A DNA stretch of 61,433 nucleotides from Pseudomonadota bacterium (GCA_043825735.1 JBDRRP010000068.1:124001-185433); one strand, 5' to 3'; shown: positions 30,397 through 46,621, numbered from the stretch's first letter. Numbers and translations are program-made. Notes: generated by a model not told the origin, from the sequence alone.

Positions 30397-31251
30397 ATGA
30401 CGACCGTTTATCGTAACTGGACCAAGGAGCAGCTTGACGCCCAGTACAACAATCGGGCGCGGGTGCCGGATTTCCAGCGGTTTTTGGGCGAGTGGACCGC
30501 CCGCAGCACCCGATGTTATGAAACGGCGACCGTTCACAGAAACATTGCCTACGGCGGGCATCCCCGGGAGCGGTTGGACGTGTTTCCGGCAGCGAAGGCC
30601 GGCGCGCCGGTCCACGTGTTTTTCCACGGCGGATACTGGCAGTCCCTGTCAAAGGACATGTTCGCTTTCATCGCCGCCCCCTATGTCGCCGCCGGGGTCA
30701 CCACCGTCATGGTGAACTACCCCCTGGCCCCGGACGACGTCATGGACCGCATCATCGCCGCCTGCCGCAGCGCAGTGGCCTGGGTGGCCCGGGAGATCCA
30801 CGCCTTCGGCGGCGATCCGGACAATATCGTGGTGAGCGGTCACAGCGCCGGCGGTCACATCGCGGCCATGCTCATGGCCGCCGACTGGGTGCCGCTGCCC
30901 GCCGATGTCATCAAGGGCGCGGTGAGCGTCAGCGGCCTATTCGATTTGGAGCCCATTCGATTGTGTTATCTCAACGCCGTGCTGGGCATGGATGCTGAAA
31001 CGGCCCGGCAAAACAGCCCGGTTCACCGGAACCCCCGGGTTGTCTGTCCCCTGGTGCTCGCAGTGGGGGAAAAAGAATCAGAAGCCTACCACAGCCAGAC
31101 CAGCAACATGGCTACCGCCTGGCATGACACGGGCGTCGACGTGACCACGCTCACCGTGCCGGCGTCCAATCATTTTTCCATTCTGGACAGTCTGGCCGAT
31201 CCAACGGGGGTGGTGTTTCGGCAGGTGATGCGGCTAATCCCAGGGGTTTAA
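30397..31251 (+). CDS. Alpha/beta hydrolase, arylformamidase-like
   Basis: LDAQYNNRARVP, FFHGGYWQ, GHSAGGH, NHFSI. Confidence 0.85.
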   Translation: MTTVYRNWTKEQLDAQYNNRARVPDFQRFLGEWTARSTRCYETATVHRNIAYGGHPRERLDVFPAAKAGAPVHVFFHGGYWQSLSKDMFAFIAAPYVAAGVTTVMVNYPLAPDDVMDRIIAACRSAVAWVAREIHAFGGDPDNIVVSGHSAGGHIAAMLMAADWVPLPADVIKGAVSVSGLFDLEPIRLCYLNAVLGMDAETARQNSPVHRNPRVVCPLVLAVGEKESEAYHSQTSNMATAWHDTGVDVTTLTVPASNHFSILDSLADPTGVVFRQVMRLIPGV

Positions 31252-31653
31252 TAGGGCGGCGCCGCTGGCGGCCATGTCCCGGACGTTTCGGGTGACGACC
31301 GTCATGCCGTGGACCATGGCAATGGCGGCGACAAGGCTGTCAATGGCTGGCATTTTGTTTCCAGTGCGCTCCGCCGCAGCCTGAATATCTCCCCATTTTT
31401 GGGCAACTTCAAAATCGACCCCGAGGATCCGCTGTTTGAATCGCTGGTATAGCTCATGATCGAGCCAGCTTTGGAGAGACGCCTTCTTAGGGGAATCAGG
31501 TAGCAGCGAAATGCCTTTTTGAATTTCACCGATGGTAATCGCACTCAGAAACAATATTTCTTCCGGCTGATCTTTAAGCCATGCCACAACCTTTGCGGAA
31601 GGTTTGGGGCGGGTCAGCTCCGAAATGACGCAGGTGTCCAGAAGGTAATTCAA
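31234..31653 (-). CDS. vapC: PIN-domain toxin
   Basis: YLLDTCVISE, SAITIGEI, DSLVAAIA, VVTRNVRD. Confidence 0.92.
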   Translation of the reverse strand: MNYLLDTCVISELTRPKPSAKVVAWLKDQPEEILFLSAITIGEIQKGISLLPDSPKKASLQSWLDHELYQRFKQRILGVDFEVAQKWGDIQAAAERTGNKMPAIDSLVAAIAMVHGMTVVTRNVRDMAASGAALLNPWD

Positions 31654-31898
31654 AACAACACCTCCCGGCCCGGCGTCGTGTCTCTTTCGATGGAGATGTC
31701 GCTGCCCCGGAGTGGAGAATTTAAGAAAAAATCGACAATGTTATCCTTTGACCGGGTCAACTCGCGATACTGCTCGACGGACATGACCACCACCGCTTCC
31801 ACCCCCCGTCGGGTAACAACTTGGGGCCCAGTGCTGAGCGCCTTATCAACCACCTCACTGAATTTGTTTTTCGCTTCCTGCAATTGCCAGTGTGCCAT
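31650..31898 (-). CDS. Phd/YefM family antitoxin
   Basis: WQLQEAKNKFSEVV..GPQVVTRRG; overlaps toxin start. Confidence 0.92.
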   Translation of the reverse strand: MAHWQLQEAKNKFSEVVDKALSTGPQVVTRRGVEAVVVMSVEQYRELTRSKDNIVDFFLNSPLRGSDISIERDTTPGREVLF

Positions 31899-32940: not shown

Positions 32941-33270
32941 TCAGCCCTCTTCCAGTAGCCGGCGCTGCAGCAGGGTCTGCATGTCGCGGCGGCCGTCGGC
33001 AATCAGCAGGATATAGACGGTGCTTTTGATGACCCGGTAGACAATGCGGTAGGGTTTGAAAAAGATCTCGCGGTAGTCACGGCTGCCGAGTGCCAGCAGT
33101 TCATCCGGATATACGCCGCGCTCCGGGTTTTCAGAGAGGCTTTCAAACGCGTTCTCGATGGCGTCGAGGACGTGCCCTGCGTTACCCGGAGCGTCCTGCC
33201 GCGAGATATAGTGATAGATCTCTTCCAGATCACGCGCGGCATCCCTGGTCAACATGACGGAGAAGGGCAT
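32941..33270 (-). CDS. RelE/ParE family toxin
   Basis: LTRDAARDLEEIYHYI..NPERG..PYRIVYRV..DGRRD. Confidence 0.9.
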   Translation of the reverse strand: MPFSVMLTRDAARDLEEIYHYISRQDAPGNAGHVLDAIENAFESLSENPERGVYPDELLALGSRDYREIFFKPYRIVYRVIKSTVYILLIADGRRDMQTLLQRRLLEEG

Positions 33271-33545
33271 CAGCTGTTTCCTCTGCGGCTGCGAAGTCGC
33301 TGAATGACGCCGGCAGCAGATTCAACATCGCCTTTTTCGATCTGGCGGTTGCCCAGGGCAAGGATTTTAAGCAGCGCCATGGTCTCCTGCGTGCGCTCGT
33401 AGCTCGCAATGTCTTGAATGACGACCTTTGCCTCACCGTTCTGGGTGATGATCATGGGTTCGCCGCAGTTTTCCATACTTCGAACGATCTCGCTGGCATG
33501 CGCCTTCAGATAACTGATCGGTTTGATCCGGCCGGACAATTTCAT
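33270..33545 (-). CDS. Phd/YefM family antitoxin
   Basis: IKPISYLKAHASEIV..IITQNGEAKVV. Confidence 0.9.
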   Translation of the reverse strand: MKLSGRIKPISYLKAHASEIVRSMENCGEPMIITQNGEAKVVIQDIASYERTQETMALLKILALGNRQIEKGDVESAAGVIQRLRSRRGNS

Positions 33546-36990: not shown

Positions 36991-37290
36991 GGTATAAGGT
37001 ATAAGGTACAGGGTACAGGGTACACGATAAAACCAACACGTTTTCCTTTTTTGCTTTTGGCCTAACAGCGCATCAGCTATGCTACGACCGCAGGCCGCCC
37101 TATCCTGTTGATCCTGTAAATCCTGTCAAATATCTTTGCAGTTGCTTTTGCGGCGAAGCCGCCCGCCCTTATCTGCGAAAATCTGCGTTAATCCGCGTCC
37201 CATTCTGCAGTTCGCAGTTGCATTTGCTGTCGTCTGCCATCTGCAACCTGTCCTGCATAGCCGCAGGCGAAGCGGGATCTGTCCTCCGGC
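36991..37290 (-). repeat. Modular repeat array D (reverse orientation) plus heptamer run
   Basis: ggtataa/ggtacag heptamers; on minus strand aactgc..cgcggattaacgcagattttcgcagat..ggcggcttcgccg..aactgc..acaggatttacaggatcaacaggat..gggcggcctgcgg. Confidence 0.75.
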
Positions 37291-37379
37291 CCCACCGGCG
37301 TTGACAAGCTCACCGGCGTTAACTATTGCCTCTACATCCCCAAACCGATTCCCGGTTGTTGGCAGAAAGAGGCCAGGAT

Positions 37380-38093
37380 ATGCCCAAAGCAACCCGGCTG
37401 TACTATCTCGACAATCTCAAGGTTTTGCTCATCATCCTGGTGACCATGCATCATGTCGGGCAGGCCTACGGGACGACCGGCGGCGGGTGGTTTTATTCAT
37501 ACCCGGGCGATCGCGTAAAGCCGCTGGAGTTCTTTTTTGCCTTCAATGCCTCGTTTTTCATGCGGCAATCGTGGGGGTTTCCGATCGACCGATGGATCAG
37601 CTTCCTCGGATTCATCCAGATGGAACCGGCCCACTTTCCCCAGTACCTGTCTCTTTTTATTTTTGGTGCGCTTGCCTGCAGATGGTCCTATCTGGATTCA
37701 ATCACCACGCCCCGGAACACCCTCTGGCTCCTGCCCGGTGTGGGTGTTTTCATCGTCACGGTGATACAACGCTATACCACTGGTCATAATCAGGCCTTCT
37801 TTCTGTGGCCGTATCGTGAGGCGCTGCTCTGCACCGGCGTCTGCATCGGGTTGCTCGCGCTTTTCAAAACTTTTTTCGACCGCACCGCCCGTATCCTGCA
37901 GCTACTATCGGAAAATGCATTCGGGGCTTACGTCCTGCACGTCCCGGTGGTCGTTGCGCTCCAGTACGCCTTCGATCCGGTCCATGCGGGCGCCTTTACG
38001 CTGTTCGTCATCGTCTCTGCGCTGTCGGTACCCGGATCGTTCCTGGCGGCGATCCTTGCGAGGCGTATCCCCGGGGTGAAGCGGGTTCTATGA
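37380..38093 (+). pseudogene. Acyltransferase-3 family gene copy with in-frame 420-nt internal deletion
   Basis: Near-identical to 44518..45651 but lacks the equivalent of 44701-45120; junction at tcatg microhomology (37558-37562). Confidence 0.85.
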
Positions 38094-38170
38094 TAACACC
38101 GGAGCGCTGGCACCAAAGAAACGGGAATTGAAATTACGGAGGCTTCCCGAAGGCCCCTGAGCGCAACTAC

Positions 38171-38252: not shown

Positions 38253-38646
38253 TTCATGGACATCAATTGTCTTGCAGTTTTGTAATTGATTCTGCGGCAT
38301 GCAAAATAGCCACTAAAACCTGCAGTTGACATGATCGTTGGCTTTAAGTATGGACTATCGATGCCCACAGTCTTTTATAGCAGCCATTGAACAATCCTAT
38401 CTCACCTTCTCTTGTCGGGCGGCGGACAATTTACACATTGATTAGCGACGGATTCATGCATCAGCAGCCGTCAGGAAAAGGTCAACACTGATATGTTGAT
38501 GGCCTGTTGAAGAAAAGCATGTGCGGCGGATAGCGCTTTGGTACAAGCTCAAAACAGGTAAGCCAATGATGAGAGATTGAAATTCTATGGGGTGTCTACA
38601 AGTTTCCGTGCTTATAGGCGAGCGAGGGGCGTAGTTACCTCTATAT

Positions 38647-38668
38647 CGAATAGGCCTATTCGTACAAT
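38647..38668 (+). promoter_or_regulatory. Perfect 16-bp palindrome abutting a -10-like box upstream of TIR gene
   Basis: cgaataggcctattcg (38647-38662) then TACAAT (38663-38668), then aaggag RBS; no good -35. Confidence 0.55.
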
Positions 38669-38687
38669 AAAATAAGGAGACGATAAG

Positions 38688-39179
38688 ATGGTAAAAGACA
38701 AAGTAAAGAATGTTTTTATAAGTCATCATCATAAAGATGATGCACATGTAGATAAATTAACAAAATTGCTACATAGCAAAGATTATCATATAAGAAATAG
38801 TTCAATTAGGGCGAAACCGACAAACCAGAAACGACTAGATAAAGGGCTTGTGAAAGATGCAACAATTAAACGCCTTTTAAGGATGAAAATTTCATGGGCA
38901 GGATCAGTTATAGTACTAGTAGGGAAAGAAACACATAAGCGTCCTTGGGTTGATTGGGAGATAACACAAGCACATAAACAAGGAAAAACAATTGTTGGCG
39001 TTTATGAATATGGGCTCAAAGAAAAAGTTGAGCTCCCAAAGTCATTAGAAAAGTATCAAACAGCTCAAGTGGGATGGGATTCTCAAAAAATAATTGATGC
39101 TATTGAAGGGAGATCTGTTTTTGAATATCCTGGCGGTAGCCCCTATACAAGAAAGGATGCGGGCCATTATAAATGTTAG
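38688..39179 (+). CDS. TIR-like domain protein (MTH538/ThsB-like)
   Basis: NVFISHHHKD, VIVLVGKETHKRPWVDWEI with catalytic Glu, GKTIVGV. Confidence 0.88.
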   Translation: MVKDKVKNVFISHHHKDDAHVDKLTKLLHSKDYHIRNSSIRAKPTNQKRLDKGLVKDATIKRLLRMKISWAGSVIVLVGKETHKRPWVDWEITQAHKQGKTIVGVYEYGLKEKVELPKSLEKYQTAQVGWDSQKIIDAIEGRSVFEYPGGSPYTRKDAGHYKC

Positions 39180-39835
39180 CAGTTCCTATCAGATATCTGT
39201 TTATTTATGTCGTTGACAGAGACTTTGGATTCGCTCCAAATCCTTTTCATGCTTATTGTACCTTGGCTACATGTAAGGCAAGACTTCGGAATAGCGCGAA
39301 TGTAGGCGATTGGATCCTGGGCGTGGGTGGTTCTCGGTTGAATGCTACAGGGAAGTGTATATATTTAATGAAAGTGACAGAAATATTGACCTTTGATGAA
39401 TATTGGAGCGATAGTCGATTTAGATTGAAAAGGCCAATAAGGAATGGAAGCCTTGTAATGTTGGTTGGTGATAATATTTACCATCAAAACTGTAAAAATA
39501 AATCATGGATTCAAGAGGACTCACACCATAGCAATCCAGATGGCTCAATGAACCTTACTAACTTAAATAGAGATACCAGCTCTCACAAAGTTTTGATATC
39601 GTCTTTTTTCCTCTATTTTGGGTCCTCAGCACCAATCATCGACTTGAATTCAATAGGATATTCAAACGGTATAGGCTACTCAAAAAAACCACTTACAGAT
39701 AATCGAATTGAAAGTTTTATCACTGGTATTTTAAATGAATATAGAGAAGAAATAAATACTGTAATTGCAGATCCATTCAATTTTGAAATTGCATATTCTC
39801 GTGTAGATCAGGGATCTGGTCGTATACATAAATAG
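39173..39835 (+). CDS. Nmad2-like (nucleotide modification associated domain 2) protein
   Basis: YVVDRDFGFAPNPFHAYCTLATCK..VGDWILG..GDNIY..SHHS; 7-nt overlap with TIR gene. Confidence 0.8.
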   Translation: MLAVPIRYLFIYVVDRDFGFAPNPFHAYCTLATCKARLRNSANVGDWILGVGGSRLNATGKCIYLMKVTEILTFDEYWSDSRFRLKRPIRNGSLVMLVGDNIYHQNCKNKSWIQEDSHHSNPDGSMNLTNLNRDTSSHKVLISSFFLYFGSSAPIIDLNSIGYSNGIGYSKKPLTDNRIESFITGILNEYREEINTVIADPFNFEIAYSRVDQGSGRIHK

Positions 39836-39867
39836 AAAAGTATAATGTTAAAATTAGGGGGAGAATA

Positions 39868-40401
39868 ATGGCGGTCATCACAAAGGGTAACTTTTCAATA
39901 AATCTTGGCATATTCAAAGTAGGTGGTGATTTTTCGGATGAAGACCGCCAATGTGCATGGGAGCTATATACTGAAATTATAACGCGACTATCTGTTCATG
40001 GAAGAATAACTCCATCGGCTAACATTTTTGATGAATTTAAAGGTGAATTGTTTAATGAAAGTCTCTCGTCTCTGTATGCATTTTTTAAAGAAATGCGCGG
40101 TATTATGAGGAAATTCCCTGTTGGTAAAATTGAATGCGCAAATGAATACCATTTGGGGAAATTGACTTGTTCAATTATGAATGATGTACTAAGGCCTTTC
40201 CTAGAAAAATGGCAAGGTAAATATAGATACTGGTTTGATATTGAAGCTAGGAAAAATCCTGAAAGATCGCCCTTTGAAGTCCAGATGGAGTTCCCACATC
40301 TTGAAGATTTCATGACTGATTGGTCAAACTTAAGAGAACTAATGAGATCTGTAGCTGAGTCTTTAGCTAAGGAATATCAATTAGTGCAGTCAATTAGTTA
40401 G
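39868..40401 (+). CDS. Conserved-looking helical hypothetical protein
   Basis: ggggag RBS; AWELYTEIITR, ESLSSLY, LRPFLEKW patterns; same operon as TIR-Nmad2. Confidence 0.75.
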   Translation: MAVITKGNFSINLGIFKVGGDFSDEDRQCAWELYTEIITRLSVHGRITPSANIFDEFKGELFNESLSSLYAFFKEMRGIMRKFPVGKIECANEYHLGKLTCSIMNDVLRPFLEKWQGKYRYWFDIEARKNPERSPFEVQMEFPHLEDFMTDWSNLRELMRSVAESLAKEYQLVQSIS

Positions 40402-40753
40402 TTCCAGTTAGACGAATATGGTCAATCATACCGAGCCGTAGTTGTTGTAACTACTGCCACCATTATTCTATCTATAGCGCAATTGTGACATGAAAAGATT
40501 GTTTATAAAATTTTACTAATTTTTTTCTAACTCTCTTGAATTACAACAGATCTTTCAAAGGATTCTCATAGAACGGACCACATCTCTTAATGGTGAATTC
40601 TTTATAGCAAATGCCTTTAAAGGAAACTCTATAGATTTGGAAAGGACTTGTTGCGCTTAGTCGCGATAGATGATATCCAGGTTTCTACTTTACTACGAAT
40701 AATAGTGTATAATTAGATAATGCTTACTATATTGGAAGGATATAGAAAACTAA

Positions 40754-41494
40754 ATGCTTAATGTAGAATCTTCATCGGCATACCCTGTGAACGATGGAAA
40801 CGGTATTAAAGCCAATACGGTAAATATATATAAAATCAATTACTCCACTACTACTGGCAAGACTTACCCCATCGAAATTGGCATTGCTAAAAGATTGAAA
40901 GAAACCGTCCCAGTAAACAAAATTAAAACTACTGAAGCTTGTATAAAAGGCTGCAAGTTATTCGGGAGAAATGGAGGATGCCCCCCCTTTTCTCCTGAGT
41001 TTAGTTCGCTCCATGGAAATAACATCTTAATTCTTTACGCCAAAATGAAAACCATTGATTTTCCAGAAAAAGTTATCCATGGTCCTTATTATTCAAGATG
41101 GGTTTTTGTTGAAACCTTTATGACGCCGTTGACAAACAGGTTGGGGAAATTTATCGCAGCGCAATTAGATGGATACTTTTTAAGTTCTGGGCATTGCAGT
41201 ACTTGCAGGCCAAAGAAGTGTAGTGTAAAGCTCGGCAATAACTGTTGTGACCCAAAGCACCGAACCTATTCTTTAGAGTCTACAGGTGTAATTGTTACGG
41301 AGTTGGTTGAAAAAGTATTCGGAATTGAACTAGAATGGTGGGATCCAAAAAACAATAAAATAATACCCAATCATATGATGAAAATAGTTGGTGTTCTTGT
41401 AAAGAACGAATTTAGCTTAGAAGCAATCAATACGATTGTGCGAGAAGCAATTCGTGCTGACAAAAGAATAGTTCAAGATTCAATCTTTGAATAA
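40754..41494 (+). CDS. DUF2284-like Cys-rich metal-binding protein
   Basis: ACIKGCKLFGRNGGCPPFSP, GHCSTC..C..CCDP..RTYSLESTG. Confidence 0.72.
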   Translation: MLNVESSSAYPVNDGNGIKANTVNIYKINYSTTTGKTYPIEIGIAKRLKETVPVNKIKTTEACIKGCKLFGRNGGCPPFSPEFSSLHGNNILILYAKMKTIDFPEKVIHGPYYSRWVFVETFMTPLTNRLGKFIAAQLDGYFLSSGHCSTCRPKKCSVKLGNNCCDPKHRTYSLESTGVIVTELVEKVFGIELEWWDPKNNKIIPNHMMKIVGVLVKNEFSLEAINTIVREAIRADKRIVQDSIFE

Positions 41495-42946
41495 AAAGGT
41501 CTCAACAGGTTCTTCTTTTCCATTAACCTTGATGTCTATATGGTTTGTCTTGTTTATATGGTTAAATTCAAAAATTTTCTTTTCTGTACTGTCTTCGATG
41601 GCAGTCATTTGAAATGAGAATTTAAAGTCTCGTCTGCTTGCATCTAGCGCTCCTCTAAGCCATTTAACCCATTTCTTGCAAATCGATTTAAAGAGTTTCT
41701 CAGTTTGTTTAAAAAGTTCCGGCTCCTCTTCTTCACCTTGCTCCTTATTTTCATTTTTAATAGTGAACGCATATTCGGTATTTCTCTTTACCCTGAATTT
41801 GATCTTGATTAAGTCGTCTCGGTATAGCGGCAAGAGCGGTTCAATATTAAGGTCTTTACCTCCCCCTTTAAGCTCTTGAAAATTTGGTCTTTTCCAAATC
41901 TGCAACTCATCAGCTATTATTAGCAAAAATGGAAGTGATGTATGAAAAATATGGTAGATATCAGTGCAAGTGTGGCTAGCAATAGCTCTTAGTATTTCCC
42001 TTCTAATATAGAATTGCCTAGCGTCTTCAGTCTCACTGAATGGCTTTTTGGAATCGAGGTCTGATTCAAGGAAATATACAAGATTTTTCATTAAAAGAAT
42101 ACATGAGATTATGCCGTGATTTAAATTCTCTAGAGACTTTGAAAATTTTAGATAATATTTTGATTGCCTCGCAGTAATATAATTGTAATTGATTTGTATT
42201 CTTTTGTTTGCCCCTAATCCTCTTGGGCTCCTGTTATCTCTTGCATATATCAATTTAGAGCTTATGAATTCAAGGATGAAATCATTAATAAAAAAATGAT
42301 GCGTCGGTATCTGATACTGACTGAATTGCGACGGGCTCCCAAAATGCCTCATCATTTCATTTATTTTGCTAAGTATCTTATCATTTTTATCGAGAGGATA
42401 ACCCAAGTCATGCGTCAAAGCGATTATGCACCACATCGCCTCAATTTCAGGTTTTTTTATTTCAAGACCGCGGTTAATATTTAATAGCTCTTCGTAATCC
42501 CAATGAACCTTGTAATCAATTTTATTAAGTAAAAAGCAACCAATTAGCCATACCCGAAAAACATGCGCGACATGGTCTCTATAAAACTGATCAGCTCCAT
42601 AAAGAAAGCCCTCAAACTCCTGGTACTCTATAAAGTATTTATACAACTCATTGACACCAAAAGCTATTTTATCTCGCTTCCAATTTTTCGGTTTTGATGC
42701 ATATTCTCTTTTGTCTATTTTCTTTAGATAGGTAATCGCATCTCTTAACAAATCGACCCATATATAATTGTGCTCTTGAAATGCACTTGCAACGATATTT
42801 CCAGAATCTTTTTTACTTTGAACCAGTAAGCGTAACAAGGTATCTTTTGTTTTCTCGACAAGAAATAAAGGCAAACCACTCCGATTATTAAAACCGTTTT
42901 CTCTAACTAACAATTCGTCATTTAAGACATCATTAGGTGGTGGCAT
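41480..42946 (-). CDS. HD-superfamily metal-dependent phosphohydrolase
   Basis: YRDHVAHVFRV, LTHDLGYP, NHG, AIASH, IADELQ give the complete H..HD..H..H..D set. Confidence 0.8.
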   Translation of the reverse strand: MPPPNDVLNDELLVRENGFNNRSGLPLFLVEKTKDTLLRLLVQSKKDSGNIVASAFQEHNYIWVDLLRDAITYLKKIDKREYASKPKNWKRDKIAFGVNELYKYFIEYQEFEGFLYGADQFYRDHVAHVFRVWLIGCFLLNKIDYKVHWDYEELLNINRGLEIKKPEIEAMWCIIALTHDLGYPLDKNDKILSKINEMMRHFGSPSQFSQYQIPTHHFFINDFILEFISSKLIYARDNRSPRGLGANKRIQINYNYITARQSKYYLKFSKSLENLNHGIISCILLMKNLVYFLESDLDSKKPFSETEDARQFYIRREILRAIASHTCTDIYHIFHTSLPFLLIIADELQIWKRPNFQELKGGGKDLNIEPLLPLYRDDLIKIKFRVKRNTEYAFTIKNENKEQGEEEEPELFKQTEKLFKSICKKWVKWLRGALDASRRDFKFSFQMTAIEDSTEKKIFEFNHINKTNHIDIKVNGKEEPVETFLFKD

Positions 42947-42966
42947 AACGGTAGCAATATAGGTAT

Positions 42967-43986
42967 TTAACTGATAAGCTTTTTAATGCAGCTTGGATCT
43001 CTAATTACATTAAATTTGTCACTGGATAGTATTCGTTGTGCGATGCAACCGCTTTTACATAATCCAAAGTACTCACATTTTATACAGACATTCGGATATT
43101 CTTTATTCTGAACTAGTTTAAAAAGCGAAGCATTTTCAATTATTGATTTAAGTGAGTCGCTATATATGTTGTTATTTGTGTTGTATGATTTGACCTGTTT
43201 CAAAGCATCGCATGGGTATGCATATCCATTTGGATCGATTATTAGTTTGTCTCTACCAGTAGTACAAGGTGTAGCGTTGCCCAGTATTAGAAAGTTAAAT
43301 GGCGAACCAGTTCTGATAACCAGGTTTGCGTAGCATTCCCGCAGTTTATTAATTAACTTTCTAAGGACTACGTAATCCGCTTTGTCTGGAGTGAGTCTAT
43401 CTGAGGAATCAATACCTCTACCTTGCGGGACAAATCTTAGAATGCTTAGTTGTTTGACCCCAATTGAGGAGATGAATTCTGTGAGGTTTTTAAGTTCATT
43501 CAATAGAGGCTTTAATACTACAAAATGCACCTCAGTATATATGCCTGCCAAAACTGCCGATTTTATTGCAGCAACTGTAGCGCAAAAACTACCTTTAACT
43601 CTAGTAATCCTATCATGAATATTTGGTTTTGATGAATATAAACTAAATACTAAGTGCGTTACTCCTGATTCATACAAATCTTGAATTTTTTCTTCTGAAA
43701 TTGGAGTGGGTGGATTAAGTGAGACAATTCCACTAGTATAAACTTTAATAATTGAGTCTTTTTGGCTAACCTTTCTAATGTGCTTGGAAATATTTTTGAT
43801 TAATAATGGTTCTCCTCCAGAGAAATAGAAATGATTGCAACCCAATTCAGCAGCTTCAAACAAAAGTCTTTCTATAAGCTCATCGGAAAAAGTTGTGTTC
43901 AAATTGATGCCAGCTTCTGTAGAGCAATGAACACAATTTAGTAAGCAATGATTGGTGATCTCTATTTTTAGCTCATTGAGGCGCAT
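42967..43986 (-). CDS. Radical SAM protein with SPASM domain
   Basis: EITNHCLLNCVHC, SGGEP, CTTG..IDPNG..YPC, CIKC-x5-CKSGC. Confidence 0.9.
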   Translation of the reverse strand: MRLNELKIEITNHCLLNCVHCSTEAGINLNTTFSDELIERLLFEAAELGCNHFYFSGGEPLLIKNISKHIRKVSQKDSIIKVYTSGIVSLNPPTPISEEKIQDLYESGVTHLVFSLYSSKPNIHDRITRVKGSFCATVAAIKSAVLAGIYTEVHFVVLKPLLNELKNLTEFISSIGVKQLSILRFVPQGRGIDSSDRLTPDKADYVVLRKLINKLRECYANLVIRTGSPFNFLILGNATPCTTGRDKLIIDPNGYAYPCDALKQVKSYNTNNNIYSDSLKSIIENASLFKLVQNKEYPNVCIKCEYFGLCKSGCIAQRILSSDKFNVIRDPSCIKKLIS

Positions 43987-44032
43987 TTTCTTAGTCAAAG
44001 CGCAACATATTGTAGGGAGGGTGGTTAAGAGG

Positions 44033-44061
44033 ACAATATATAGGTCTATAAACCTTGTCAA
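44033..44061 (-). promoter_or_regulatory. Sigma70-type promoter of rSAM-HD operon with palindromic spacer
   Basis: TTGACA(44061-44056)-N17-TATTGT(44038-44033); spacer contains aggtttatagacct. Confidence 0.7.
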
Positions 44062-44142
44062 CAAAAACAAAGTGAGGCGGTCCTACACACCCAAAGCCCT
44101 GGAACATATTAATTAAGAAACAGGGGGGTGGTTAAGACCGCC
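44062..44142 (-). other. Long bulged hairpin followed by U-rich tract (terminator or small RNA)
   Basis: ggcggtc/gaccgcc, caccc/gggtg, ccctg/caggg nested pairings; tttgtttttg follows on minus strand. Confidence 0.45.
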
Positions 44143-44517
44143 CTTAGAATTTCATTTCCCTGAAAATTGGGTGCCAACCATGCTATCTAATTAATATCAA
44201 ACGAATAATACCGCTTATGCCTGCTTTGATATCGCTTCCAAAACATACCTTATTGTGGGTAAAATGGCTGGTGCAAGAAATAAACCTTTAAAGGCCGGCA
44301 AAACACCTATCGCTTACCGTGAAGATGATTCGCGCCCCATTCCGCAGTTCGTCGCTTCAGTTGCTGTCGTCTACCACCTGTCCTGCATAGTCGCAGGCGG
44401 AGCGGGATCTCCCCTCTGTCTTCTGGCCCTCACCGGCGTTGACAAGCTCACCGGCGTTCACTATTGCCTCTACATCCCCACACCGATTCCCGGTTGTTGG
44501 CAGAAAGAGGCCAGGAT

Positions 44518-45651
44518 ATGCCCAAAGCAACCCGGCTGTACTATCTCGACAATCTCAAGGTGTTCCTCATCATCCTGGTGATCATGCATCATGTCGGGCA
44601 GGCCTACGGGGCGACCGGCGGCGGATGGTTTTATTCATATCCGGGCGAGCGGGCAAAGCCGCTGGAGTTCTTCTTCGCCTTCAATGCGTCGTTCTTCATG
44701 GGGCTGTTCTTCTTCATATCCGGCTATTTCTATCCCCAGTCCTTCGATCGCCACGGTGCCGGCAAATTTTTGAAAGACAAATGCATCCGTTTCGGCATTC
44801 CGCTGGTCTTCGTCTGTTTTCTCGTGACCCCGCTGCTGGAATACGTAAAATACGTGCATTACGTCCACGAGATCGGTTTCCCGGAATTTTATGGGCGAAT
44901 ATGGCAAAAATACGGCCTTCGCATCGTGTACCCCGGTGGTTTCAATTTTGCCCATTTGTGGTTTGTCGAACATCTGCTCGTCTACGCGATGGCCTATGCC
45001 GCCATCCGGTCGGTGCTGCCGACACGTGTAGCACCACCAGCCGTCGCAACCGCCGTAAAAGCGAGATGGTACGTCATCATCGCCTATATTTTGCTCCTCG
45101 GGATGATCACCGCCCTCATGCGGCAATCGTGGGGGTTTCCCATCGACCGATGGATCAGCTTCCTCGGATTCATCCAGATGGAACCGGCTCACTTTCCCCA
45201 GTACCTGTCTCTTTTTATTTTTGGTGCGCTTGCCTGCAGATGGTCCTATCTGGATTCAATCACCACGCCCCGGGATATCCTCTGGCTCCTGCCCGGCGTG
45301 GGTGTTTTCGTCGTCACGGTGATACAACGCTATACCGCTGATCATAATCAGGCCTTCTTTCTGTGGCCGTATCGTGAGGCGCTGCTCTGTACCGGCGTCT
45401 GCATCGGGCTGCTTGCGCTTTTCAAAACTTTTTTCGACCGCACCGATCGTATTATGCAGAAACTCTCGGAAAATGCATTCGGGGCCTACATCCTGCACGT
45501 TCCGGTGGTCGTTGCGCTCCAGTACGCTTTTGATCCGGTACAAGCCGGCGCCTTTACGCTGTTCGTCATCGTTTCCGCGCTGTCGATACCCGGATCGTTT
45601 CTGGTGGCGACCCTTGCGCGGCGTATCCCGGGAGTAAAGCGGGTTTTATGA
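44518..45651 (+). CDS. Acyltransferase-3 (OpgC/MdoC-like) membrane protein
   Basis: RLYYLDNLK..VIMHH, FFMGLFFFISGYF, HLWFV, AYILH; multiple TM segments. Confidence 0.88.
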   Translation: MPKATRLYYLDNLKVFLIILVIMHHVGQAYGATGGGWFYSYPGERAKPLEFFFAFNASFFMGLFFFISGYFYPQSFDRHGAGKFLKDKCIRFGIPLVFVCFLVTPLLEYVKYVHYVHEIGFPEFYGRIWQKYGLRIVYPGGFNFAHLWFVEHLLVYAMAYAAIRSVLPTRVAPPAVATAVKARWYVIIAYILLLGMITALMRQSWGFPIDRWISFLGFIQMEPAHFPQYLSLFIFGALACRWSYLDSITTPRDILWLLPGVGVFVVTVIQRYTADHNQAFFLWPYREALLCTGVCIGLLALFKTFFDRTDRIMQKLSENAFGAYILHVPVVVALQYAFDPVQAGAFTLFVIVSALSIPGSFLVATLARRIPGVKRVL

Positions 45652-45865
45652 TAAAATCAACGTGCCGGCACCGCGACGAACGGTTGGAAGATCATGGAAC
45701 ACCAGTTCTGGTATGATATCGAAAGGGATGAGACGCTTACAGATCAGGAAAAGAAGGCAGCGCTCAAAAAGCGCATGGACGGGCTTTGCAAAGTGGTGCA
45801 GCAAGGAAAGGCCAATCCCTGGCTTGGCTGCTTCCAGGGATAAAAAACCGAGAGACTGACCAATA

Positions 45866-46321: not shown

Positions 46322-46456
46322 GGTGAACCTCCTTAGTTTGTCCACGTTTCTCTAAAATGCGCCAGTGGTTTCGTGAATCCGACTGCTGAAGGATCAACGG
46401 TCCGAGCCACCATGATGCTTCGGGATGAATTGGGCTGACGGCGACACCCCATCCAA

Positions 46457-46621
46457 ATCGAAATCGGGATCGCTATCGAAATCGAAACGCCATGGCCGTC
46501 ATGGCCGGGACCATGGTGGCATCCGCGTCCTGTTGACAGGCGTCTAAAATAATACACAGTAATGGTTGACGGCCTGACGGCGCAAATCGATTTCGATCCC
46601 GATAGCGATTTCGAACCCGAT
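46457..46621. repeat. Inverted ATCG hexamer-period repeat pair
   Basis: atcgaaatcgggatcgctatcgaaatcga facing tcgatttcgatcccgatagcgatttcga. Confidence 0.8.

Follow-up and report, generated by a model that had tools for sequence, protein, structure and literature searches.

Infection sensing by ThsB-type TIR proteins is understood in few cases. The closest described relative of the locus analysed here is DS-4 (working id NTTI), reported in the DefensePredictor study (DeWeirdt, Mahoney and Laub, Science 2026, PMC13092281), which in the available parts of that source comprises a thymidylate synthase (TS), a dNMP kinase, a 5-hmdU kinase, a TIR protein and Nmad2; one screen row records a -log EOP of 0.93 on lambda, with smaller plaques. 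Types I and II Thoeris carry an operonic SIR2-SLOG or Macro-TM ThsA. Type VI Thoeris consists of ThsB and ThsG/DUF6650 and employs 2'cADPR (Yirmiya et al., bioRxiv 10.64898/2025.12.03.692087). In the accessible text of that preprint ThsG is a 2'cADPR-responsive hexamer, found with and without TM helices. The term 'Nmad' is absent from the main text, and the supplement (Table S1, 29 types) may list the ORF3 family described below or TIR-Nmad2.

In PUA-Calcineurin-CE-HAD, as far as its available description goes (bioRxiv 10.64898/2026.01.15.699771), a modified deoxymononucleotide bound by a PUA-like domain leads to activation of a partner enzyme, the same idea as we propose below. That ligand, however, is m6-dAMP from the host and the effect is to deplete dNTPs, and there is neither a TIR signal nor a set of dedicated modifying enzymes. 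Kongming (dITP signalling, bioRxiv 10.1101/2024.12.20.629578, accessible part) is alike by analogy only: its own enzymes produce a nucleotide with a modified base, which activates a partner that uses NAD, with a deaminase, a HAM1-like receptor and SIR2 where the present locus has radical SAM, PUA and TIR proteins. Radical SAM genes also combine interchangeably with those for 5-hmdU kinase and dUMP hydroxymethylase in the gene clusters by which phages hypermodify thymidine (Lee et al., PMC8989533, available sections), but there the target is phage DNA.

A literature search returned no paper specifically on TIR with Nmad2, and older work from the Aravind laboratory may already describe such operons. 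Papers from that laboratory in 2013 and 2015 reportedly defined Nmad2 and its neighbourhoods. Here we describe a six-gene island within a window of 61,433 nucleotides from a Pseudomonadota bacterium (GCA_043825735.1 JBDRRP010000068.1:124001-185433; positions are counted from its first letter). Judged by sequence, the locus appears DS-4-like at its core but distinct from DS-4, with an output that would work like that of type VI Thoeris without a DUF6650 HMM match.

A low-GC island with a TIR-Nmad2-ORF3 operon

The island (38300..44250, edges approximate) stands out by its GC content, 35.7% over 38600-44250 compared to 57.5% for the genome. Its first three genes lie on the plus strand and encode a ThsB-type TIR of 163 aa (38688..39179) with a catalytic Glu91, a SHHH motif and an invariant C-terminal Cys163; Nmad2 (39173..39835, 220 aa, PF18753), with a predicted PUA-like (YTH/EVE/ASCH) fold; and ORF3 (39868..40401, 177 aa), a putative effector with a predicted N-terminal beta-hairpin and helical bundle. 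The original prediction had described this trio as a minimal unit lacking a known Thoeris effector. The ORF calls and the sequence bear out its layout: TIR and Nmad2 overlap by 7 nt, a 32-nt gap separates Nmad2 from ORF3, and RBS-like purine-rich stretches are found 5' of TIR (TAAGGAG) and, as had been noted, of ORF3 (AGGGGGAG). ORF3 indeed has no TM segment, the maximum 19-residue Kyte-Doolittle mean being 0.92. A promoter and terminator scan found 16 compared to 21.5 expected, which is at or below chance.

Three more island genes, at 40754-44070, had been left out of that unit. A plus-strand gene for a Cys-rich, predicted metal-binding DUF2284 protein of 246 aa (40754..41494; PF10050, E 3.7e-17) is convergent with, and overlaps at its end, the gene for a 488-aa HD-motif protein (41480..42946, minus strand), a putative nucleotide phosphohydrolase with the motifs RDHxxH...THDLGY...AD/DD. 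Beside it lies the gene for a radical SAM/SPASM (rSAM) enzyme (42967..44070, minus strand), a member of a subfamily known from pyrimidine-nucleotide operons, with an open frame of 367 aa from a TTG; the likelier start is probably the ATG at 43986, giving 339 aa. The rSAM-HD pair is thereby on the strand opposite to TIR-Nmad2-ORF3. The HD motifs were kept in 4/4 aligned homologues, and the protein matched an 'HD domain-containing' cluster by Atlas structure (TM 0.66), with no Pfam match, no PDB sequence match and no relative in viral contigs. All six reading frames are intact; neither an integrase gene nor HMUDK was found in the island. The island is real and intact, and probably anti-phage.

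Comparison with DS-4 and Thoeris

DS-4, in the available parts of its description, likewise has a TIR followed by Nmad2 (PF18753) beside nucleotide-modifying enzymes. Compared with the E. coli DS-4-type pair, the TIR and Nmad2 of the window were 56% and 57% identical, and the 7-nt overlap and terminal Cys are common to both; these values refer to DS-4-type orthologues (Nmad2 accessions in the accessible PMC13092281 tables) rather than to the tested strain's own sequences. The island differs in having no TS, dNMP kinase or 5-hmdU kinase, with rSAM/SPASM, HD and DUF2284 genes instead, together with an operonic effector candidate. When reference sets for the three DS-4 enzymes were searched by tblastn, none was found in the island and only weak, distant matches elsewhere in the genome. 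One locus (L113) combines the DS-4 layout with an ORF3-family gene.

The six island proteins contain no domain of the SIR2-SLOG or Macro-TM ThsA kind. The window resembles type VI Thoeris, as far as the preprint text at hand describes it, in its ThsB-type TIR with a small helical partner, whose family has soluble and N-terminal-TM forms as does ThsG. It differs by the inserted Nmad2 and by an ORF3 without a PF20355 match.

In E. coli, the DS-4-type operons have a convergent block behind them (L183:10970-14873, L184:10521-14424) that holds two TIRs, a TIR-SLOG and a hypothetical gene; the counterpart of this last gene in L100/L105 is distantly related to ORF3 (E 3e-10). The five genes listed as DS-4 do not include this convergent TIR/SLOG block, a possible reason for the weak DS-4 score.

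TIR-Nmad2 is the fixed core of the island

The TIR matched PF08937 ThsB_TIR (E 3.5e-22) and PADLOC ThsB1 PDLC00418 (E 9.4e-56). Its catalytic Glu, correctly read as retained in the original prediction, is Glu91 within WVDWE, invariant in 59/59 aligned TIRs and in 81/81 close TIRs. The combination by which Thoeris is recognised, a ThsB-type TIR with a catalytic Glu, is present in the window TIR. Nmad2 matched PF18753 at E 2.2e-64, with C34, D100, N101, H119 and D134 invariant.

The metagenome sample comprised the 80 loci (73 distinct) closest to the query of at least 553, and is biased to close relatives. Within this close-relative sample, TIR lay directly 5' of Nmad2 in all 63 distinct loci with room upstream; the same order was seen in 10/10 plasmid loci examined, of 17 matches. 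For distant Nmad2, TIR adjacency was found in 0/4 evaluable phylum loci and, at a strict cut-off, in 2/7 viral-contig loci. Before Nmad2, TIR-like partners of high divergence (hhalign 97.7%) were recognised in three further viral-contig loci and one plasmid; three of the four have lost the catalytic Glu, and all have kept the tail Cys. Nmad2 was present in 9/401 phylum genomes, and in 0/13 from the same order. The fixed core of the island is TIR-Nmad2, rather than the three-gene unit first proposed: ORF3 is swappable, and the rSAM/HD/DUF2284 block recurs beside TIR-Nmad2 elsewhere.

A Cys within the last four residues was found in 78 of 79 distinct TIRs before Nmad2 (the very last residue in 73), compared to 0/36 TIRs before ORF3 alone and 1/50 other TIRs; the 79 are related by descent and do not represent 79 independent events. 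Provision of the Cys in cis by TIR-less Nmad2 was considered and dropped after a mixed result, Cys-rich tails being found in only some such proteins. The divergent TIR-like genes (L154:1140-1637, L157:4564-4998, L158:665-1084, L173:4477-4995) lie within MazG/UDG/dCTP-deaminase loci.

TIR and Nmad2 are predicted to form a heterodimer

Multimer prediction, proposed at the outset as a check, gave a TIR-Nmad2 complex model scoring 0.89, compared to 0.05 for the best control. The 0.89 mark was reached by 116/157 solved and 2/215 mismatched pairs, counts that hold only roughly for this model, in which custom alignments and a zinc were used. Runs shared at least 71% of contacts, with a partner pLDDT of at least 88. 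The predicted interface comprises residues 96-101, 120-127, 141-145 and 152-160 of the TIR and residues 25-27, 84-97 and 195-208 of Nmad2. Its RNGS loop (about residues 84-97) forms the predicted TIR-binding surface, and NG in this loop was present in 61/61 TIR-adjacent copies compared to 0/6 others. Cys163 is missing from the residues confidently placed in the interface, and no score covers the zinc. Because structure searches returned no Nmad2 structure, it is unlikely that the score stems from a memorised solved complex. These models predict that TIR and Nmad2 form a heterodimer.

The Nmad2 model itself had a pLDDT of 82.7, and its best structural match (Z 7.5, rmsd 3.5, 131 aligned) falls within the middling range of the tool. 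Ranks 1-22 of 48,161 chains belong, by their titles and known families, to the PUA-like group (YTH, EVE, ASCH), and the best Foldseek rows were Zymomonas ASCH proteins with E above 0.001. Nmad2 is accordingly predicted to adopt a PUA/EVE/YTH/ASCH fold. The proposal that it reads modified bases finds support at the level of the modelled fold, in that the top 22 matches, led by Z 7.5, are all PUA-like.

ORF3 as a candidate effector

No Pfam, PADLOC, NCBIfam or PHROG match was obtained for ORF3. Its family, with 546 close homologues and 739 representatives at E<=0.001, includes soluble forms and forms with an N-terminal TM helix. Among 72 distinct rows, 36 lay behind a TIR of another clade, 13 behind Nmad2 and 23 behind neither; these counts use HMM labels, and single-linkage cluster 2 is contaminated by a sigma-54 read-through ORF (L054). 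A TIR was in view in 11 of the 13 rows behind Nmad2, window included, and the TIRs that precede ORF3 without Nmad2 are only about 27% identical to the window TIR. An ORF3-family gene directly 3' of Nmad2 was found in 4/55 GTDB loci chosen by ORF3 and in 9/61 distinct metagenome loci chosen by Nmad2. The gene order envisaged as a conserved unit therefore recurs, and the Nmad2-ORF3 arrangement is not due to chance. In a quick tree, from which L088 (a 96-aa fragment) and L005 (an 863-aa patatin fusion) were left out by length, the Nmad2-adjacent genes fell into at least three subfamilies, with at least 4 changes forced; label clustering was not significant, 30/500 shuffles being as low.

Membership of Pfam DUF6650 was rejected, since PF20355 matched 0/66 close and 0/88 distant members. 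With a deep alignment, hhalign of ORF3 and DUF6650 gave a weak match (probability 25.7%, E 7.4e-4, 110 columns) whose score of 27.8 exceeded that of 30 block shuffles (15.8 +/- 2.5, maximum 21.6) and of the reversed profile (13.9). The close-only alignment gave a probability of 0.15%, and a bridging ORF3 subfamily scored 24.4 with DUF6650, below the maximum of its shuffles (29.8). The Atlas result for ORF3 and DUF6650 was 0.85, with 189/256 features. These profile comparisons make it fairly probable that ORF3 is a remote homologue of ThsG/DUF6650. The claim that a known Thoeris effector is lacking therefore stands at the Pfam level, but is undercut by this weak, control-beating profile similarity. 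Three DUF6650 loci from phylum genomes had no TIR within about 1.5 kb. The Foldseek check suggested for ORF3 yielded no match at E<=0.001, and VIA-align returned only generic helical bundles (best Z 8.8). No pore-forming role is proposed, the ClyA and Mak rows (Z 7.0-8.7) lying under the tool's bar for helical proteins.

Reference TIRs matched only the window TIR in this genome, so that no other ThsB-like partner for ORF3 was found in the assembly. In other loci the ORF3 slot is held by TIR-SLOG, SLOG, SIR2-SLOG, patatin, TIR-WD40 or a small TM protein, and a Thoeris-type putative effector was found in 26/27 loci that extend 2.5 kb or more in each direction. Such blocks often carry their own TIR (L084, L096, L101, L104), which weakens their link to TIR-Nmad2. 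The protein had been proposed as a novel effector or adaptor, and of the two an effector seems more likely, because of the ThsG-like profile similarity and the usual place of the family directly behind a TIR without Nmad2.

Fusions of ORF3-like domains with patatin, with a TIR-NTPase protein and with receiver-like domains were also seen (L005:6715-9306; L060:3562-5838; P0132, P0133, P0139). Close ORF3 and close Nmad2 homologues came from matching sources, on contigs of the same length, in P0013/P0280, P0008/P0318 and P0014/P0377, circumstantially suggesting more trio loci.

The rSAM gene appears to take the place of the TS-like gene of DS-4

Of 52 distinct metagenome Nmad2 loci that extend 3 kb or more in at least one direction, 46 had nucleotide enzymes, and in the other 6 none was found. 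They comprised HMUDK (26 loci), MazG_C (19), TS-like (18), UDG (12), dCTP deaminase (7), dNMP kinase (7), rSAM (6) and HD (2). Over all loci, rSAM occurred in 8 and TS-like genes in 26, with both in 0; this pattern suggests that the rSAM gene takes the place of the thymidylate-synthase-like gene of DS-4. The rSAM subfamily was found in 6/52 short Nmad2 loci compared to 4/400 whole phylum genomes. The rSAM enzymes of Nmad2 loci are 28-36% identical to that of the window; a search of 50,697 phage records gave no match to the window enzyme at E<=1e-10.

L102 carries five of the six window genes as a single run (HMUDK-rSAM-HD-TIR-Nmad2-ORF3), and L129 has the order TIR-Nmad2-(TIR-SLOG)-rSAM-HD-DUF2284. 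In L193, a DUF2284 copy 47% identical to that of the window is convergent with rSAM. One plasmid in 72,556 carried the HD gene, and was also the sole rSAM match at E<=1e-20; its TIR-Nmad2-HMUDK-rSAM-HD operon is the same element as viral contig L153, and was counted once. The neighbours of the loci include RM, SIR2, SLOG and patatin genes.

In the converse search by enzymes across 400 phylum genomes, 5/5 loci (L165, L190-L193) were without TIR-Nmad2 within 12-16 kb, the rSAM lying beside TS-like, HMUDK, dCTP deaminase, UDG, DUF1643 or DUF2284 genes. The enzyme block is therefore separable. By its gene content it appears to be a free-standing pyrimidine-nucleotide module that is often joined by TIR-Nmad2, and the DUF2284, HD and rSAM genes probably belong to the system of the island.

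In L190:4408-8577 and L191:4403-8606, an HTH-IrrE pair (domain scan covering L190) precedes TS-like, HMUDK and rSAM genes, and TIR-Nmad2 is absent. This is a stand-alone nucleotide modification operon, which is possibly induced by damage.

Model and alternative explanations

We tentatively favour, at somewhat less than an even chance, a model in which all six genes form a two-tier Thoeris-type anti-phage circuit, running from a modified pyrimidine nucleotide through Nmad2-TIR and a cADPR-type signal to ORF3. TIR and Nmad2 would act as a heterodimer, as the predicted structure and co-variation suggest. From gene context, the rSAM with HD and DUF2284 would make or trim an unusual pyrimidine deoxynucleotide during infection, a role that TS-like, HMUDK, dCTP-deaminase or MazG/UDG enzymes would fill in sister loci. 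The modified nucleotide or DNA, bound in the PUA pocket of Nmad2, would turn the TIR on, in keeping with the fold and with the precedent of PUA-Calcineurin-CE-HAD. The TIR would then convert NAD+ to a cADPR isomer, most likely 2'cADPR, and ORF3 would oligomerise and arrest the cell as ThsG does. The terminal Cys most likely would complete a metal or binding site with Nmad2. The model is weakened by the five converse loci in which the enzyme block stands apart from TIR-Nmad2, by the opposite strand of rSAM-HD and the missing HMUDK here, by the six Nmad2 loci in which no nucleotide enzyme was found, by the loss of Glu91 in divergent partners, by effector blocks with TIRs of their own, by the weak ORF3-DUF6650 similarity, by the place of Cys163 outside the confident contacts and by the middling Z of the Nmad2 fold. 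If this model is true, Thoeris output is coupled to sensing of the Kongming/PUA type, with a modified nucleotide preceding the cADPR signal. While the TIR-Nmad2 core has already been published as DS-4, the locus offers directly testable handles in the predicted TIR-reader heterodimer with its named interface, the terminal-Cys signature, the rSAM variant and an operonic effector candidate that is missing from the cloned DS-4.

The trio could instead be self-sufficient, with Nmad2 sensing phage-made modified bases or host-DNA breakdown products and the TIR signalling to a ThsG-like ORF3, the rSAM-HD-DUF2284 genes being a separate defence module that shares islands; this comes near to the original prediction. 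We consider it rather unlikely: although the enzyme block stands without TIR-Nmad2 in all five converse loci and lies on the opposite strand here, although no enzyme module was found in 6/52 Nmad2 loci, and although PUA domains need no dedicated writer in order to bind m6-dAMP (bioRxiv 10.64898/2026.01.15.699771, available text), a nucleotide-enzyme module accompanies 46/52 Nmad2 loci, often in a same-strand run with TIR-Nmad2, and rSAM and TS-like genes are mutually exclusive. A catalytic Nmad2, an ASCH-like nuclease or metal hydrolase acting as effector on DNA or nucleotides marked by the enzymes, would leave the TIR mainly as a scaffold contributing its tail Cys and would make ORF3 a passenger from a type VI-like module. 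Its invariant C34, D100, N101, H119 and D134 and the Zymomonas ASCH rows (E above 0.001) would fit such a role, as would the divergent TIR-like partners that keep the tail Cys, 3/4 without Glu91, and the -log EOP of 0.93 on lambda listed in the accessible tables of PMC13092281 for a five-gene DS-4 without a recognisable effector. However, Glu91 is invariant in 81/81 close TIRs, loci with intact TIRs almost always have an effector nearby (26/27 where 2.5 kb or more is available in each direction), ORF3-family genes stand right behind Nmad2 in at least three subfamilies of the quick tree, and the Glu-less TIRs are on short contigs in which no effector was recognised. This explanation is unlikely.

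Partial activity of DS-4 without an effector (PMC13092281, parts at hand), the predicted direct binding of TIR and Nmad2, and PUA-like domains reported as fused to TIR effectors (available text of bioRxiv 10.64898/2026.01.15.699771) could also mean that the TIR itself acts as the effector, depleting NAD+ directly once Nmad2 with its bound ligand activates it, with ORF3 as an accessory and no diffusible signal involved. As the TIR is ThsB-type and effectors co-occur in 26/27 loci, this seems decidedly improbable. Least probable by far is a role other than anti-phage defence, as a cassette for nucleotide metabolism or damage response, or the status of a decaying remnant. Two rSAM operons do follow an HTH-IrrE regulator pair (L190 scanned), and DS-4 protection is weak in the single screen row at hand, but the six frames are intact, the neighbours include RM, SIR2, SLOG and patatin genes, and the accessible tables of PMC13092281 list DS-4 as validated and replicated.

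A bolder proposal, which we regard as a long shot, makes the terminal Cys of the TIR a covalent acceptor: the rSAM would attach a pyrimidine nucleotide to this residue through a thioether bond, and the Nmad2 pocket would read the adduct, holding the TIR on or off. In sister loci, TS-like and 5-hmdU kinase chemistry would stand in for rSAM. The proposal fits because of the 78/79 Cys signature, the retention of the Cys in Glu-less TIRs, the exclusion between rSAM and TS, and the predicted path of the TIR tail along Nmad2; it is weakened because the Cys persists in MazG/UDG-only loci (12/52) and because the enzymes also occur without any TIR. If true, the Cys adduct would place a TIR under post-translational control by a nucleotide, with enzymes borrowed from phage base hypermodification.

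Flanking sequences

The island is bracketed, upstream region included, by a duplicated acyltransferase_3 gene. The left copy (37191..38096, plus strand) lacks 420 nt internally, in frame, the deletion falling at a short TCATG match, and the full-length right copy (44328..45654, plus strand) is 89-93% identical to it. With repeats of this length, the island could be lost or amplified. At 46452-46621 there are imperfect inverted repeats of 28-31 nt, and the stretch at ~37100-37230 is a REP-like dispersed repeat, short matches to it recurring about 40 times in the genome. To the left of the island, at a distance of 5-7 kb, 31234-31898 and 32941-33545 presumably encode toxin-antitoxin-like pairs (PIN/Phd-like and RelE/Phd-like).
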